Below are positions 13,302 to 23,535 of a stretch of DNA of 64,000 bases, one piece after another (position 1 is the stretch's first letter; the number at the start of each line of letters is the position of its first letter). Source of the stretch: an uncultured Planctomycetaceae bacterium (lineage in GTDB: Bacteria; Planctomycetota; Planctomycetia; Isosphaerales; Isosphaeraceae); contig CAWIAD010000002.1 of assembly GCA_963833985.1 (NCBI GenBank), positions 3,936,001-4,000,000 on the forward strand. The letters are read 5' to 3'. The translations under genes and the position numbers were made by a program. The notes below the pieces were generated by a model, which saw only the letters and a list, made by a program, of their open reading frames with translations, had not been told where the DNA came from and did no database searches.

Positions 13302-13934
13302 ATGACCGGCGGCGATGGATGTCCCCTCCAGGGCAGCGTTCTCGTACTCAACAAGTTCTATACTGCCGTTCAAATCATCTCGGTTCGCCGGGCCTTCGGC
13401 CTGCTCTTCAAGGAACTCGCCGAGGTGGTCGCGATCGATGACGCCCAGTACATGGGGTTCAACCTCGGCTCGTGGCGCGAGGTCTCCCGGACGCGGGCCC
13501 TGTACACGGACCCGGATGACGAGTACGTCCGCTCGGTGCACTTCGAGATCCGGGTTCCCCGGATCATTCGCCTGCTCGCCTACGATCGGGTTCCGCGGCA
13601 GAAGGTCAAGTTCAACCGCCGCAATATCTTCGCCCGCGACGGCAACCGCTGCCAGTATTGCGGCCGCAAGTTCCCCACCAGCGAACTGAGCCTGGACCAC
13701 GTCGTCCCGCGCAGTCAGGGAGGACGGGCCACGTGGGAGAACATCGTCTGCGCCTGCGTGAAGTGCAACGTCAGGAAGGGAGGCCGGACCCCGCGCCAGG
13801 CGTCGATGCAGCTCTATCGCGAGCCGGTCCAGCCCCGCACCAGCCCGACTCTTCGGCTCAAACTCTCGCAACGTAAGTATGTAAGCTGGAAAGTCTTTCT
13901 TGACAATGCTTACTGGTCGGTGGAGCTGGAATGA
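13302..13934 (+). CDS. HNH endonuclease (McrA-like)
   Basis: RRNIFARDGNRCQYCG, LDHVVPRSQGG, WENIVCACVKCNVRKG. Confidence 0.9.
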   Translation: MTGGDGCPLQGSVLVLNKFYTAVQIISVRRAFGLLFKELAEVVAIDDAQYMGFNLGSWREVSRTRALYTDPDDEYVRSVHFEIRVPRIIRLLAYDRVPRQKVKFNRRNIFARDGNRCQYCGRKFPTSELSLDHVVPRSQGGRATWENIVCACVKCNVRKGGRTPRQASMQLYREPVQPRTSPTLRLKLSQRKYVSWKVFLDNAYWSVELE

Positions 13935-17056: not shown

Positions 17057-17392
17057 TCAGAGGAACCTCACCTGACCGGCCAAGTCTGGAGGGTCAAGCC
17101 GTTCCCAGACAAGAACCAGGCCGCGGACAATGTCACCGATGCTTCGCTTTCGCTGCTGGCAGTAAACGACGCCTGAGTGCTCGACTCCAGAGGCAGCAAG
17201 CCGCAAAAGATCCTCGTCGTAGCTGAAGATTACCCGACCTTGGGCGAGACAAAACCGAAGCTGGTCCTCATCAGTGGCCCCGAGAAGACCCACCTCGGGC
17301 GTGGTCGTCACATCGATGCCGCGACGGCGAAGGCCGGCGGCGATGGCATGAGAGCAGTTCTCATCAAGATGAAATGGAATCGTCCGCGGCAT
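17057..17392 (-). CDS. DUF5615 PIN-like toxin (VapC45-like)
   Basis: FHLDEN...LRRRGIDV, GATDEDQL, RVIFSYDED, HSGV; overlaps the upstream DUF433 gene. Confidence 0.85.
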   Translation of the reverse strand: MPRTIPFHLDENCSHAIAAGLRRRGIDVTTTPEVGLLGATDEDQLRFCLAQGRVIFSYDEDLLRLAASGVEHSGVVYCQQRKRSIGDIVRGLVLVWERLDPPDLAGQVRFL

Positions 17393-17747
17393 TGGGCTTC
17401 CGTGCCTTGAGCTCATCGAAGATTGACGGAGCGTTGTTCCGGAGTTTCTCGGCAAACTCCTCGCCGTCTCGAATCTCCCGGTCTATCCCGTCCCGGTGGT
17501 CGAAGTAGTAGGCCAGGGCCGCGTGAACGTCAGAGAGGGTGATGGTCGGATACTCGGAAACGATTTCATCCGGGCTCATCCCCATCCGCTCATACCATAT
17601 GGCGACGTCCGCGACCGTGATACGGTGACCAGCGATGCGCGGCTTTCCCCCGCGGACCCCTGGGGTCATCACGATGCGGTCTGTAAGGCTTACACTTTCC
17701 ATAGAGGAAGAAGCCGTTATGCTCCCAGGTTGGCTCGTCGGTTCCAT
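17364..17747 (-). CDS. DUF433 antitoxin-like protein
   Basis: TPGVRGGKPRIAGHRITV...GMSPDEIVSEYP.ITLSDVHAALAYY; start uncertain (17756, 17747 or later). Confidence 0.88.
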   Translation of the reverse strand: MEPTSQPGSITASSSMESVSLTDRIVMTPGVRGGKPRIAGHRITVADVAIWYERMGMSPDEIVSEYPTITLSDVHAALAYYFDHRDGIDREIRDGEEFAEKLRNNAPSIFDELKARKPNAADDSISS

Positions 17748-17821
17748 GTGTTTCATCCTATCACAAATCTCGCCTCCCCGAGGAAATCGACAGTCCTGAA
17801 AGCGGCCAGGACTTTGGAACT

Positions 17822-17915
17822 CACATAAGAAAAAAGGACCACATAAGAAAAAAGGTTCTTCTAAGAGAAAAAAGGACACATGAGAGGACAAGAATGAGGA
17901 CAAAAAGGAGGACAA
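17822..17915 (+). repeat. Purine-rich tract 1: two identical 16-bp CACATAAGAAAAAAGG copies, then short A/G-rich units ending in GGAC
   Basis: Copies at 17822-17837 and 17840-17855; units aaaaaaggac, gagaggac, atgaggac, aggaggac; preceded by hairpin AGTCCTG/CAGGACT at 17792-17813. Confidence 0.8.
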
Positions 17916-18114
17916 AGCTGGCGGAATTTTGGCGGAAGAGAGGCACGCCAAGAGCGAGTCGTTATGATTCTAACCGGATGAGCCACGGAGCGCGCGTGCA
18001 TGGCGGTGTAAGCAACTCCACACCCCGTGATCGACCCATAAAGGAGGTCGGAGCATCAGCAAGTCAGGAGCGGCTCTCCAAGCGGAGGCCGTGAGTGCAG
18101 GGAGAAAGGAGACC

Positions 18115-18591
18115 ATGAGGATTGTCGAGCGGAAGGTGTCCGCAGGGGATCGCGAGATCTTCGACCTCGATGAGTTCCTCTCGCGGCCATTGTATGCCCA
18201 CCTGGCGCACGATTCGAGACACGGGCCGAGGAATTCACCGGTCTGGTTCCACTGGGATGGCCGGGCGCTCTGGATCATCGGCGGCACGTCCTTTCCCGCG
18301 AACCTGAGTCGGGAGCCCCGCTGCGCCATCGGCATCGTGGACTGGGACCCGGCAACGGGACTGAGTCAACACGTCGGGCTCCGGGGCCGAGCGGAGGTGC
18401 TCGCGTTCGACCCCGCGGTCGCTCGAACAATCTTCAGGAAGTACTTTGGCCCCGATGAGGATCGGTGGGACCCGCGGTTCCGCGAGGACATCGCTGGCGA
18501 GACGGGCGTGCCGTTGATCCGGTTCATTCCCGAGACGGTTGTCATGCGCGACCAATCCTACGAACCCCCGGGTCAGATTGCGTCGGTCTGA
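18115..18591 (+). CDS. Pyridoxamine 5'-phosphate oxidase-like (PNPOx, split beta-barrel) protein
   Basis: FLSRPLYAHLA, PRNSPVWFHWDG, NL.REPRCA, LRGRAEV; AAGGAG RBS. Confidence 0.8.
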   Translation: MRIVERKVSAGDREIFDLDEFLSRPLYAHLAHDSRHGPRNSPVWFHWDGRALWIIGGTSFPANLSREPRCAIGIVDWDPATGLSQHVGLRGRAEVLAFDPAVARTIFRKYFGPDEDRWDPRFREDIAGETGVPLIRFIPETVVMRDQSYEPPGQIASV

Positions 18592-18656
18592 GGGGGCTCG
18601 ACCGGCGCGGCGTCGGCTGTCGAGGCGCAACTCGGGCGCGACCAGATCCCGCCAGC

Positions 18657-18763
18657 AGGACAACGGAGAGGAAGGGACTCAACGAGAGGAAAGGAGAGAG
18701 GAAAGAGAGGAAAGAGAGAGAAACAAAGAGAAAAGGACCGGACAAGAGAGAAAGGGACAGGCA
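18657..18763 (+). repeat. Purine-rich tract 2 (GAGAGGAAA-type units punctuated by GGAC) ending at GGGACAGGCA, upstream of the transposase
   Basis: About 100 nt almost entirely A/G on the + strand, read directly. Confidence 0.8.
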
Positions 18764-18771
18764 ACGCAGCC

Positions 18772-18800
18772 TTGACCGGGTTAGTGGGATTGGGTAGCCT
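18772..18800 (+). promoter_or_regulatory. Putative sigma70-type promoter of the transposase (second copy at 19329-19357)
   Basis: TTGACC-N17-TAGCCT, then GGAGG and ATG at 18828. Confidence 0.55.
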
Positions 18801-18827
18801 GTGCGGATCTTACTGGGAGGTCCGTGC

Positions 18828-19388
18828 ATGACGATTGCCCGTGCGCATCTGGTGGATCCATCGGTTACTCGCTGGTATCACTGCATCACGCGGTGCGTGC
18901 GGCGGGCGTTTCTGCTGGGGGAGGGCGGGATCGACCGTAAAGAATGGATCGAACGGCGGTTGCGGGAACTTGCGGAGATCTTCTCGGTGGCCGTGGGAGG
19001 GTTCGCCATCCTCGATAACCATCTGCATCTGCTGGTGCGGCTCGACCCCGATGTGGCGGCGGGGTGGGCGGATGAGGACATCGTGCGGCGCTGGGGGCGG
19101 CTTTTTCCGCCCCGCGACAAGGCTCGAAAGGCACTGCCGGTCTCGGAGGCTTGGGTCAAGGAACGGCTGAAAGACGTGAAGTGGGTGGCCACCGCACGCC
19201 AGCGGTTACAGAGCCTGAGCTGGTTCATGAAGTGCCTGAAGGAGCCGCTGTCACGGATGGCCAACCGCGAGGACGACACGCGCGGGGCGTTCTTCGAGGC
19301 AAGAGAGAAAGGGACAGGCAACGCAGCCTTGACCGGGTTAGTGGGATTGGGTAGCCTGTGCGGATCTTACTGGGAGGTCCGTGCATGA
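18828..19388 (+). pseudogene. Truncated first copy of the RAYT/IS200-like HUH transposase
   Basis: Identical to the full copy up to GAFFE, then an unrelated tail; keeps HUH motif NHLHL but lacks AYIDLNP; its TGA overlaps the ATG of the next copy. Confidence 0.85.
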
Positions 19389-20431
19389 CGATTGCCCGTG
19401 CGCATCTGGTGGATCCATCGGTTACTCGCTGGTATCACTGCATCACGCGGTGCGTGCGGCGGGCGTTTCTGCTGGGGGAGGGCGGGATCGACCGTAAAGA
19501 ATGGATCGAACGGCGGTTGCGGGAACTTGCGGAGATCTTCTCGGTGGCCGTGGGCGGGTTCGCCATCCTCGATAACCATCTGCATCTGCTGGTGCGGCTC
19601 GACCCCGATGTGGCGGCGGGGTGGGCGGATGAGGACATCGTGCGGCGCTGGGGGCGGCTTTTTCCGCCCCGCGACAAGGCTCGAAAGGCACTGCCGGTCT
19701 CGGAGGCTTGGGTCAAGGAACGGCTGAAAGACGTGAAGTGGGTGGCCACCGCACGCCAGCGGTTACAGAGCCTGAGCTGGTTCATGAAGTGCCTGAAGGA
19801 GCCGCTGTCACGGATGGCCAACCGCGAGGACGACACGCGCGGGGCGTTCTTCGAGGGGCGGTTCAAAAGCGTGGCGATCCTCGATGAGGAATCACTGCTG
19901 GCGACGTGTGCCTACATCGATCTGAACCCGGTGGCGGCGGGCATCGCTGAGGTGCCCGAGGCGAGCGCCCACACGTCGATCAAGGAACGCGTCGAGCATG
20001 TCCGGGACCAGGGTCGAGCCGAGGACCTGAAGGCCGCCGAGGCCGGCAGCGTGGCGGGGTCGCAGGCGGCGGAGGGGCTGGAAGAGGGTCTGTGGCTGTG
20101 CCCGATCGAGGACCGACGGGGGCTTGACTCGGACTCCGGTCTCGGTCGCGAAGGGATGGTCGAGGGGTTCTCGCTGGGCAGCTATCTGCTGCTGGTAGAG
20201 TACACCGGGCGGCTGTTTCGCGAGGGGAAGGCGGCGATCTCGGCGGAACTGGCGGGGATCCTGGAACGGCTGGGGAGCAATGCCGAGAGCTGGCAAGCGC
20301 GGCTGCTGAAGCTGGCCGGCGGTCGGCTGCTGGGGCGGTTCTTCGCGGCGAGTCGAGAGCGGCTGCGGGAGATTGCGGGGCGGCTGGGGCGGCATCATCT
20401 GGCGAACCTGGGCGGGTGCGAGGTGAGGTGA
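19385..20431 (+). mobile_element. REP-associated tyrosine transposase (RAYT)/Y1 HUH transposase, full length (348 aa)
   Basis: YHCITRCVRRAFLLG, HUH motif DNHLHLLV, GAFFEGRFKS, catalytic-Tyr motif AYIDLNPV. Confidence 0.9.
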
Positions 20432-20496
20432 TGAGCGTGATGCGGCGCGGTGCTGGTCGGGCTCACGCCCGAGGTTGGGGGCTGCGCCCGTGAAAA

Positions 20497-20705
20497 CCAC
20501 GTGCTCACGCACGTGGCCATGCGCCTCGGACGCCAGGGCGCAAACGCACGTGGCCACCCGCCCTGAACTCAGACGCTGGCGCACGTGGCCACCCGCCCTG
20601 GAATCCGCGGCGCTGGTGGACGTGGCCACCCGCCCCGGACTCCAGTGCGCTGGGGCACCTGGCCACGCGCTCTGTCCTGGCGGCTGCGCACGTGGCCACC
20701 CGCCT
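20497..20705 (+). repeat. Hairpin plus array of six ~18-bp palindromic repeats (consensus GCACGTGGCCACCCGCCC), period 33-37 nt
   Basis: Repeats start at 20509, 20546, 20581, 20618, 20655, 20688; perfect hairpin CCACGTGC-TCAC-GCACGTGG at 20497-20516. Confidence 0.85.
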
Positions 20706-21134
20706 GTGTAGGTGGGAGGAGATCGAGCCGCGGGGGGACGCAAGATCGCGGGCGTTTCGACCGTACACTGAATATGACGGCAGAGCATGCCATTGCATGC
20801 CGGGTATGCATCGGCACGCAAGGAGAACGTGCCCTACAGTTCTTTGCCAATGCGGCAGATGGTTCGGACCAGCGCACAGGCCGGCGGCGCGCTGGCCCCA
20901 CTCTCTTGCAGATCGGGTGAGGCGGTTTGCCGGATCGCCAGCGCGAAGACCGACGGAACCAAGCGAAAGTGGCAGGCCGGAACTGGCGCACCTAGCGAGG
21001 TGAAACAGCGAGGCCGGTCGGTACTTTCAGGATCGCGGGAGCCACCAAGCCCATCCTGGAACGAGGTGAGGCTTTCTGAGACCGATTCTGTTTCAACGGA
21101 TCAGCGCGCGTCCCTCAGTTTACGCCCCCAGTAA

Positions 21135-21221
21135 TGCCGAAGACAGGAGTTGAACCTGCACGGGGTAGTTAACCCCACTAGGACCTGAACCTAGCGCGTC
21201 TGCCAATTCCGCCACTTCGGC
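21135..21221 (-). tRNA. tRNA-Leu (anticodon CAG), 87 nt, CCA not encoded
   Basis: GCCGAAG/CTTCGGC acceptor stem, D-loop GGAATTGGCAGAC, anticodon arm CTAGG-TTCAGGT-CCTAG, long variable arm, GGTTCAACTCC T-arm. Confidence 0.96.
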
Positions 21222-21319: not shown

Positions 21320-23228
21320 TCAGCGCGGGAGCTCCAGTACTTCCAGGTGCGAGGGCCTGGCGTGCGAATGATAGACCCGCTGGGTTGCCTTTTGAAAGTC
21401 GGACTCCTTGGCGGTGGCGATGTCGACGAATGTCTGCGGGTTCCGGTCCACCAGGGGGAACCAGGTGCTCTGGATCTGAATCATGATCGAGTGGCCGGTG
21501 CGGAACGTGTGAGCGATGTCGTTGAGCCGGAAGTTCACGGGCGTGGGCTGGTTGGCAACGAAGGGCTCAGAGGCCGAGAGGCTGTTGCGAAACCGCCCGC
21601 GCATCACGTCCCCGCGCACGAGCTGCTGGTAGCCGCCCAGGGGAATCGGGTTGCCGCCGACTCCGTTGCCCGGGAAGTCGGGAGGGTAAACGTCGATGAG
21701 CTTGACGATCCAGTCGGAGTCCGTTCCCGAGGTGGCCACGAAGAGACGCGCGTCGATCGCTCCGACCAGGGTCGTGTCTGCCTCCAGAGGGCCGGTCTGG
21801 TACACCAGGACGTCGGGCCGGCGCGGCGAACCGCTGGTCCTGGATCATGTAGTCGCCGTTCATGCGATGCGTGATCTGATCGATATATTCTACCGGGTGT
21901 GCGGGGTCGCTCGTGTACTCGTCGAATTCGGGTGCGGAAGATTCGCCGGGCGGCTCGTCCGTGATGCGCCCTGAGACGTTCAAATAGAGCAAGCGCTTGC
22001 GGGCCTTGCGGGGCGGCCAGGTGTCGAACTCGCGCCACTGGTTGGTTCCCGTCTCGAAGACGCGGGCCTCGGAGAAGCTGGGCGCGCCCTTGCCCTTGAG
22101 GAAGTACTGGAAGAAGGGGAACTCGATCTCGTCGCGGAAGTGGGCCGAGGTGCTGGAGTGAAAGGGAATCGGGCCGAGGGAGGCGCCGTCGCCGCGGGAC
22201 CAGCCGCCGTGCAGCCACGGGCCCATCACCAGCAGGTTGGTCGTGCCCGGGCTGGCGGCCTCGACATTCTTGTAGACCTCCAGGGCCCCATACAGGTTCT
22301 CGGCGTCGAACCAGCCGCCTACGGTCAGGACGGCCGGGCGGATGTTCTTCAAGTGGGGGCGCAGGTTGCGGGCGGTCCAGAAGTCGTCATATTTCGCGTG
22401 CCTCATCATCTCGTTCCAGAAGGGCACGTCGTTCTTGAAATACCTCGTGTTGGCGTTCGCCAGCGGCCCTAATTGCAAATAGAAGCGATAGCCGTCGGGC
22501 GTGCCGTAGTCGAAGCGTTCGACCACTTCCTTCGCGGTCGGCTGCTTGCGCGGGTGGCCGTGGAAGGCGAGAAAGTCGAAGGCGTGCGGCAGGAACAGGG
22601 CACCGTTGTGGTGCCAGTCATCGCCGGCGAACCAGTCGGCGATGGGAGCCTGGGGGGACACCGCCTTGAGCGCAGGATGGGCGTCGATCATGCCGGCCGC
22701 GACGTAGAAGCCGGGGTACGAGATTCCCCACATCCCCACCTTGCCGTTGTGGTTGGGCACGTTCTTGATCAGCCAGTCGATGGTGTCGAAGGTATCGGTG
22801 CTCTCGTCGATATCGCTCGGACCGTTCTTGATGTCCTTGTGCGGGCGCATGTCGACGAACTCGCCCTCCGACATCCACTCCCCGCGCACGTCCTGGTAGG
22901 CCACGATATAGCCCTCACCTCCGAAGAGCGGCGACGGGCCCAGGTCGGACTTGTAGGCGTCCGCTCCATAGGGCTGCACGCTGTAGGGCGTCCGGCAGAG
23001 CAAGATCGGATAGGTCTGCGTCCGGTCCTTGGGGAGATAAACAGCCGTGAACAGTTTCACGCCGTCGCGCATCGGGATGCGGAACTCGTACTTCGTGTAG
23101 TTCGCCTTCACCAGCTCGATGCCTTGAGCCGATAGCCATGCGGGCCAGGCTGCCAGAGCCAGCCAGACGGGCCATGCGGAGACCACCGGCAGGGCCGGAA
23201 CAGGATTGAGACCGGACAGAAGACGCAT
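21320..23228 (-). CDS. CocE/NonD-family hydrolase (alpha-amino acid ester hydrolase/glutaryl-7-ACA acylase-like), frameshift near 21820
   Basis: IPMRDGVKL, RTPY, YQDVRG, nucleophile GISYPG, GGWFDAE, GPWLHG; C-terminal domain continues in ORF 21320..21805. Confidence 0.9.
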
Positions 23229-23535
23229 GGGCTCGATACTCCGGGTAAGCGCATCGGGATCGGTGATGCCAGGGCGACCGGCAAGCCGTTGGCCCCTGTT
23301 TCCTGATTTCAGCGGTCCAGAGTACGGTAAAGGCGGCTTCGAATCGGCGCCCCAGTGCGGGCCGGCGGCGCGGGTTCCAGGCGGCTGGTCGCGGGACACA
23401 TCCTGACGAATTCGGGCCGTCCCGCTGAGTATCAGCTTGCTGGCTCGAACTATCCGCCATGATCCGCGGCTCGATACACTGGTTCAACCCGAGATCGAGA
23501 GGAAATGCATCCCAACGGCCCATGGAGAGGCGACC

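Follow-up and report, generated by a model that had tools for sequence, protein, structure and literature searches.

The DNA considered here is a stretch of 64,000 nucleotides, called the window below, from the genome of an uncultured Planctomycetaceae bacterium (G000, with contigs C1 and C2; L-numbers denote related loci that were fetched for comparison). Its subject is a gene for a Y1 transposase of the HUH type and the repeats on either side of that gene. An earlier note on this DNA had listed two purine-rich tracts with a gene between them, a tandem duplication, the transposase, a hairpin, and six repeats, and all of these features are present. Sequence comparison suggests that the purine tracts and the duplication are one phenomenon, namely nested copies of the element's own tip.

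Layout of the locus

The element and its flanks are arranged as follows (window positions and strand first).

17822-17917 (+): tract 1, likely an orphan stutter scar, with nested leader plus GGAC(A) units pointing right (from sequence and composition)
18115-18591 (+): PPOX-class (pyridoxamine 5'-phosphate oxidase-like) gene, 158 aa (PF01243 and TIGR03618, both below cut-off)
18662-18754 (+): tract 2, apparently a stack of short partial copies of the left tip; its final 12 nt (18743-18754) are the leader
18743-19299 (+): 557-bp unit, the longest stutter unit, with leader, box, promoter-like region, and first 157 codons
18755-18768 (+): outer left end box GGACAGGCAACGCA, the core of a terminal inverted repeat (TIR), 73 nt 5' of an ATG; box found in 82 of 90 loci
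19300-19325 (+): inner leader (19300-19311) and left box (19312-19325) of the intact element
19385-20431 (+): intact HUH enzyme, apparently TnpA-Y1 subclass 2.3, 348 aa, with NHLH at 64-67 and Y177 in YIDLNP (Pfam Y1_Tnp, 24.7 bits)
20453-20525 (+): REP-like double hairpin, likely a member of a separate genome-wide family
20510-20704 (+): degenerate 37-nt tandem array with six cores, trailing the REP-like unit across the genome
20705-20975 (+): further repeat mosaic, common to some sister copies; right boundary ragged, inverted box not found

Both tracts are about half A, against 17.5% A across the window. Tract 1 is 77% purine and 53% A, with GGAC at 17836, 17874, 17886, 17898, and 17910, and tract 2 (taken as 18662-18759) is 90% purine and 51% A. 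The whole 10.16-Mb genome holds 78 A-rich purine tracts of this kind, both window tracts included. A single gene, of the PPOX class, sits between the two. Tract 1 has the same build as the other stacks described below, ends abruptly about 5 nt into the box, where unrelated DNA follows, and no second copy of it was found in the genome.

The duplication (18743-19299 and 19300-19856) has units of 557 bp that differ by one mismatch. It starts 12 nt ahead of GGACA, and its join has a microhomology of zero. The open reading frame (ORF) of the outer unit (ATG at 18828) lacks Y177 and ends at a stop at 19388 that overlaps the ATG of the intact gene. The overlap takes the form ATGA (19385-19388), and translation of the two could therefore be coupled. 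A promoter scan gave no hit that reached threshold; TTGACC-N17-TAGCCT lies immediately inside the box, as read by eye alone.

The transposase and its relatives

The product of the gene at 19385-20431 is assigned, by its motifs, length, and HuH-Y distance, to the TnpA-Y1 subclass 2.3 of HUH enzymes, an assignment that is drawn from comparison with published subclass features. Its length of 348 residues compares with a subclass median of 325, and the 110 residues from H67 to Y177 equal the median HuH-Y distance of 110 (Quentin et al. 2018, PMC6006769). Other shared features are NHLH and YIDLNP here for NHYH and YVDLNP there, an insertion between HuH and W, a long C-terminal tail, a TS motif past the core, several diverged copies per genome, and relatives in the Alteromonadales. 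A point of difference is that the family studied here is expanded in Planctomycetes.

The proposal in the earlier note that this is an HUH Y1 enzyme is borne out by the Pfam match and by 33 aligned relatives, in which H67 and Y177 are invariant and H65 nearly so. The AlphaFold model has a mean pLDDT of 59.5 with a poor C-terminal half, Foldseek matches are weak (all E > 0.02, the best being IS200, IS608, ISDra2, and TnpA-REP), and a search of PDB sequences with the transposase alignment found no match. The same note had placed the enzyme outside the classical RAYT/REP pattern. This placement holds, as cognate GTAG-tagged hairpins do not stand on both sides of the gene and the NF047646 profile scores 39 bits against a cut-off of 80.

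The genome contains 13 near-full copies of the transposase (the window copy and 12 others at 87-98% amino acid identity), one frameshifted copy, and many fragments. The element is therefore not sessile, contrary to an earlier suggestion. Identity of the other copies to the window copy switches between 82% and 100% in 110-nt blocks, which suggests recombination between copies. Matches occur in 16 of 31 related genomes. Named relatives are mostly from Isosphaeraceae and other Planctomycetes, and identity to proteins of Alteromonadales and Vibrionales is 33-38%.

Element ends

Left ends were surveyed in 90 loci, 14 from the window genome and 76 of the 79 fetched loci (L091, L092, and L110 were omitted for short flanks); several loci can come from one genome, and they are not independent. 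The end of the element is a GGACA-N-GCA-NN-GCA box. On the left, GG[AG]CA[TGC]GC occurs 66-198 nt 5' of the gene start in 82 loci, in agreement with an earlier suggestion that a GGGACAGGCA end is conserved. The consensus across 114 ends is A-GGACA-N-GCA-NN-G(C/T)(A/G), in which the first positions were fixed by the search. A RAYT-like gene at C1:1082000-1083200 is flanked by REP-like palindromes that contain GGGACAGGCA, and these are part of the motif's 41 genome-wide matches.

Right ends were surveyed in the 78 loci with enough downstream DNA. An inverted relaxed box lies at most 700 nt past the stop in 46 of these (about 12 expected), and an inverted strict GGACA box follows the gene in 37 (counted from the table; about 4 expected). 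Because of the latter, the transposase family appears to be TIR-bounded, and the asymmetric flanks noted earlier are not supported as a family trait. The strict right box is kept by only 1 of the 14 copies in the window genome. No right inverted box was found for the window copy, which is thus without a right TIR. For most pairs of copies in this genome, the shared sequence begins at the left box and gives out raggedly on the right, between +1022 and +2850.

Nested copies of the element tip

At least one exact, GGAC-anchored unit lies upstream at 29 of the 82 boxed loci (35%), compared with 24 of 2000 control GGACA sites (1%). The outer edge of these units is nearly fixed. Among 78 left-end units, 53 begin 8-12 nt outside the box, 16 at 3-5 nt, 3 at 0-2 nt, and 6 at 13-17 nt, and none begins farther than 17 nt away. 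The inner edge is free, with an exact match running from 4 to 243 nt, and to 545 nt in the window unit. Right ends mirror the left, with units in 20 of 46 loci and 26 of 40 units at 8-12 nt. The base at the unit start is variable, and therefore position, not sequence, sets the start. In the loci read, the units are direct prefixes that face the element. Many clean units are 14-20 nt long, leaders are common to sister copies, and several leaders are themselves built of tip pieces. On this evidence, the 557-bp duplication would be the same event as the short tip units at greater length.

Most joins have little or no microhomology. In 39 clean duplications, 17 have no microhomology and 11 have 1 nt, and the longest join ambiguities fall in A-rich or nested units. 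Orphan tracts, mini tail-to-tail end pairs, and joins of a prefix to the middle of a gene recur across the window genome.

The pattern is not confined to Planctomycetes. A gammaproteobacterial set of 12 loci, all from complete replicons and with about 35% identity to the transposase, has a left GACA-NN-CA box at 10 loci, repeated boxes or units at 9, and a right box at 7, one of which lies inside a gene and is probably chance. In P. shioyasakiensis, the element occupies one icd-tnp site, after icd, in two strains, with six left boxes in one and two in the other, and the six-box strain has a 121-bp duplication that starts 14 nt before GACA. Stacks therefore change in place. The idea of repeated cutting and joining by the enzyme at its own flanks was well aimed, in that the arrays look like the product of such events at the element tip, also in place after insertion.

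Related structures were observed elsewhere in the window genome. Mini elements of about 55 nt, each with two end prefixes tail to tail, occur at C2:510432, 2788190, 3032841, 3035175, 5023786, and 5031528; most have purine stacks outside, and two lie inside or between split transposase pieces. A second subclass 2.3-like family (C2:551451 and 2519139; 41% identity) has a different end (GATAAGGGGCCACCCAC) with the same stutter. Two subclass 2.1-type Y1 genes of 240 aa (C2:3098500-3099900 and 2426800-2428200) have inverted GTGTCAGTTCATTTTTC ends and, on both sides, very long stutter stacks of their own distinct ends. Another purine-rich repeat family (AACCACAGAGAGCACAGAG), at C1:459956-461279, C1:2579500-2580084, and C2:36698-37926, forms inverted pairs and tandem arrays that carry no GGACA boxes.

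The right-hand hairpins

After the double hairpin come six CACGTGGCCA-like cores, at 20510, 20547, 20582, 20619, 20656, and 20689, and the hairpin and array region has a fold z of -2.7. Of the "six spaced palindromic repeats" described earlier, the six cores stand and unique spacers do not, since the DNA between the cores is a degenerate 37-nt tandem repeat with 73% matches. A CRISPR-like reading of the array was rejected, the "spacers" being alike. Genome-wide, 44 of 60 short spacings are 37 nt. GTGGCCACCCGCC has only four occurrences in the genome, all matching cores of the window array, and is therefore a local variant.

The REP-like hairpin unit itself has 111 copies in 59 clusters across the genome, with 24 clusters within 1.5 kb of a piece of the transposase gene and 35 beyond that distance. 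Its 5' tag (n = 94) is GCAG in 27 cases, GCTG in 23, and GTAG in 3. A different, short Y1 gene, at C2:1859629-1860388, has eleven GTAG-tagged starts around it and is the probable owner of the 111-copy family. This region (C2:1859290-1860560) shows a short Y1 gene with NHVH, W-A, and Y---Q motifs (Pfam, 92.5 bits) and tandem GTAG-tagged hairpin starts. The unit found no match in the 79 related loci. This result, together with the GTAG-tagged copies that flank another Y1 gene, speaks against the suggestion that the right array is a product of the window enzyme. The right-hand hairpins are likely a separate REP-like family that entered the transposon lineage once and travels with it. Classical REPtrons with GTAGGGTGGGTC REPs were seen at C1:529600-530900 and C2:1566200-1567400.

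A proposed mechanism for the stacks and its alternatives

The fixed outer start, the variable inner end, and the blunt joins fit a nick, an extension, and an attack on a 5'-phosphotyrosine. The favored explanation, which we consider probable, is that a subclass 2.3 enzyme serves a multi-copy GGACA-N-GCA-NN-GCA element, and that tracts and duplication are tip copies made by a nick about 10 nt outside the box, inward copying by the host, and rejoining. The geometry, the conservation, and the in-place change are observed, and all of the chemistry that follows is a proposal built on them.

The enzyme would bind the box and nick the strand that runs from leader to box, 8-12 nt outside the box or, less often, 3-5 nt outside it. 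It would then hold the 5' end of the element as a phosphotyrosine, a polarity taken here from that described for IS608 and TnpA-REP (PMC3333891). A host polymerase could then prime on the 3'-OH of the flank and copy 5 to several hundred nucleotides of the element while peeling off the bound strand. Attack of the new 3'-OH on the phosphotyrosine would leave a tandem copy whose start is fixed and whose end varies. A stack would grow through successive rounds, and short-offset rounds would renew the leader with sequence from the purine-rich tip, which would account for the A/G tracts. Such a transfer of a 5' end to a distant 3'-OH might also move the element or a piece of it of variable length. 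Tract 1 is likely the scar of an earlier end.

Several points weigh against this mechanism. No anchored unit is present at 53 of the 82 boxed loci. Join ambiguities of 2-9 nt occur in 11 of the 39 clean duplications, above the null (16% at 2 nt or more). In tract 1 and at C2:1453087, 3201056, and 5692263, a short box prefix runs into unrelated DNA or into the interior of the gene, and a single nick-extend-rejoin reaction does not account for such joins. The ends have no consistent hairpin (114 ends; mean z of -0.17; 8 below -2), which leaves the access of a single-strand enzyme to its DNA unexplained. The 6-versus-2 difference between strains could equally be a loss in one strain, not a gain. 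Finally, no clean empty site was found. Orthologues of the neighboring ATPase stand beside other genes in G001, G002, and G010 and hence provide no pre-insertion allele. Among 33 two-ended loci, none matched a single subject on both flanks, but only two had matches on both sides.

The main rival holds that the enzyme merely nicks at a fixed site, that replication forks break at the protein-bound nick, and that host repair, through template switching and end joining, then produces the duplications, the deletions, and the orphan ends. This account covers the fixed start, the internal deletions, the tail-to-tail mini ends, and the excess of longer join ambiguities, and it explains the joins of prefixes to unrelated DNA better than the favored mechanism does. 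As an explanation of the whole it is rather unlikely, given that microhomology does not exceed 1 nt in 28 of 39 joins and that the units read are direct prefixes facing the element.

Alternatively, single-strand pieces or circles of variable length might be excised from an end and reinserted beside the same end, as in IS608 but with relaxed second cuts. Such a process would fit the long units, the scattered prefixes, and the one-ended copies whose right ends are ragged, and TnpA-REP is described as cutting many sites (PMC3333891). However, the many clean units of 14-20 nt are, by our own reasoning, too short for circles, and neither a hairpin nor a fixed cut dinucleotide was found, so that this route seems improbable.

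Integron-like capture, proposed in the earlier note, would make the tracts capture sites between which the enzyme inserts cassettes such as the PPOX gene. That gene is foreign to the class, being found at 1e-20 in only 1 of 151 Planctomycetia genomes, that of the window, and boxes alternate with small accessory genes elsewhere in the genome. Of 70 loci, 12 have a second full box upstream (co-oriented in 7 cases and inverted in 6, against 0.012 expected per strand), but some of these are long stutter units, and the other 58 loci have none. Among loci of PPOX relatives (58 of 80, with 22 left out as weak matches), the transposase is present in none and the box in two. Attachment sites of integron cassettes follow the attC motif RYYYAAC...GTTRRRY, and no such pattern was found in 17900-18760; a complete box is also absent from tract 1. 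The proposal therefore fares poorly and is judged very unlikely as an account of the tracts, although cassette capture as such is possible. The PPOX gene appears to be a horizontally shared accessory gene and is a cargo candidate.

Some observations on this gene and on other accessory genes can be added. Two metagenome PPOX relatives (L187/L188) have 70 nt of upstream DNA in common with window positions 18044-18114 (81%), so the acquired piece includes the leader of the gene. In L190, an attC-like palindrome, recognized by eye, precedes a PPOX relative upstream of position 1501, which suggests that in other genomes the gene may travel as an integron cassette. At C2:3032700-3041100, 5692200-5696400, and 495600-511500, small accessory genes (PIN, antitoxin-like, IS) are interspersed in clusters with boxes and scrambled pieces of the transposase.

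Slippage during replication of low-complexity DNA, or misassembly at the edges of repeats, can be set aside as highly improbable: the tracts are of low complexity and many related loci are metagenome-assembled, but starts are fixed relative to the box, joins are blunt, units reach 557 bp, control sites show 1% against 35% at boxed ends, and stacks occur both in contigs named by short-read assemblers (L103, L118, L122) and in complete isolate replicons, which together with the in-place change makes assembly error unlikely.

Comparison with known systems

The protein class and TIR-flanked Y1 genes are already in print. Quentin et al. detected no REP-like structures beside subclass 2.3 genes, and the relevant parts of their paper assign the subclass no TIRs, no stutter, and no mechanism (PMC6006769). 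A similar published arrangement is the TIRtron, or TIRYT, in which a gene for a tyrosine transposase lies between inverted ends and solo or paired ends form small families (Di Nocera et al. 2013, PMC3733652). The TIRtron motif GGGGWSAS matches AGGGACAG at 7 of 8 positions, with A at position -1 in 85% of the 114 ends. In contrast to TIRtrons, this family has a TIR core of about 14 nt, and its window copy lacks a right TIR; the portions of the TIRtron paper drawn on here make no mention of nested end copies (PMC3733652). The 26 TIRYT examples considered by Quentin et al. fall in subclasses 2.1, 2.2, and 2.5, with none in 2.3 (PMC6006769). No published account of nested end copies or of subclass 2.3 TIRs was found, though the supplements of PMC6006769 and PMC3733652 could show such ends. 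The relevant passages of Bertels et al. 2017 (PMC5581495) likewise hold nothing on flanks of this kind.

The proposed chemistry has a precedent in the BIME amplification model for E. coli TnpA-REP, in which a 3'-OH extended by the host attacks a 5'-phosphotyrosine and adds a tandem unit (Ton-Hoang et al. 2012, PMC3333891). TnpA-REP needs a GTAG-tagged hairpin and cuts C|T (PMC3333891). Here, by contrast, a hairpin is absent, and distance from a linear box determines where a unit starts. Compared with REPtrons and classical RAYTs, the REP-like unit stands on only one side of the window transposase.

More distant systems share single traits. IS200/IS605 elements have no terminal inverted repeats and carry subterminal hairpins. 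The window enzyme resembles those of IS608 and ISDra2 in its Y1 HUH fold (weak Foldseek matches) and differs in a Y---NP-type rather than a Y---Q motif and a length of 348 aa rather than that of a short TnpA; its element also lacks an end hairpin. IS91 and Helitron enzymes form other HUH families, with one origin and not two mirror ends. Their likeness lies in one-ended transposition, with one fixed end and variable other ends. Unlike integrons, which use the IntI tyrosine recombinase, the window enzyme is HUH, and no attC-like pattern was found in 17900-18760.

Neighboring genes and other observations

Two further features border the element.

17057-17741 (-): DUF433 and DUF5615/PIN-like gene pair, a toxin-antitoxin-like accessory module (Pfam PF04255, E 9e-21; PF18480, E 1e-13)
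21135-21221 (-): tRNA-Leu, with the accessory stretch at its 3' side

The gene pair is a neighbor outside the element, and its homologues are scattered across the genus. An Rfam scan detected nothing except the tRNA. Farther away in the window are an HNH endonuclease gene (13302-13934, PF14279) beside an isopropylmalate dehydrogenase-like gene, the latter named by eye, and a CocE/NonD-like hydrolase gene (21320-23399, minus strand, named by eye) in two frames split near 21830, through a frameshift or a sequencing error. Elsewhere in this 65% GC genome, a very AT-rich stretch with stop-ridden protein-like sequence (C1:3373500-3376800) might reflect contamination or another genetic code.

Implications

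A broader interpretation can be offered tentatively. Subclass 2.3 (and 2.1) Y1 enzymes may represent a third working mode of bacterial HUH transposases, with no hairpin and no guide tetranucleotide, in which a linear 14-nt box is read, the cut falls about one helical turn outside it, and replicative 5'-end transfer proceeds from either end on opposite strands. Aborted rounds would leave stutter stacks, and one-ended rounds could copy DNA of any length, stitching accessory genes such as the PPOX gene between old scars.

The scars provide, for TIR-bounded HUH elements, a candidate substrate (the box), a predicted nick strand and position, and a predicted product. They would, moreover, document in living cells the nick-extend-rejoin step that has been proposed for BIME amplification. 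An enzyme able to write tandem copies with a fixed start, or to move one-ended pieces of any length, would give Planctomycetes and marine Gammaproteobacteria a way to duplicate and shuffle genes.

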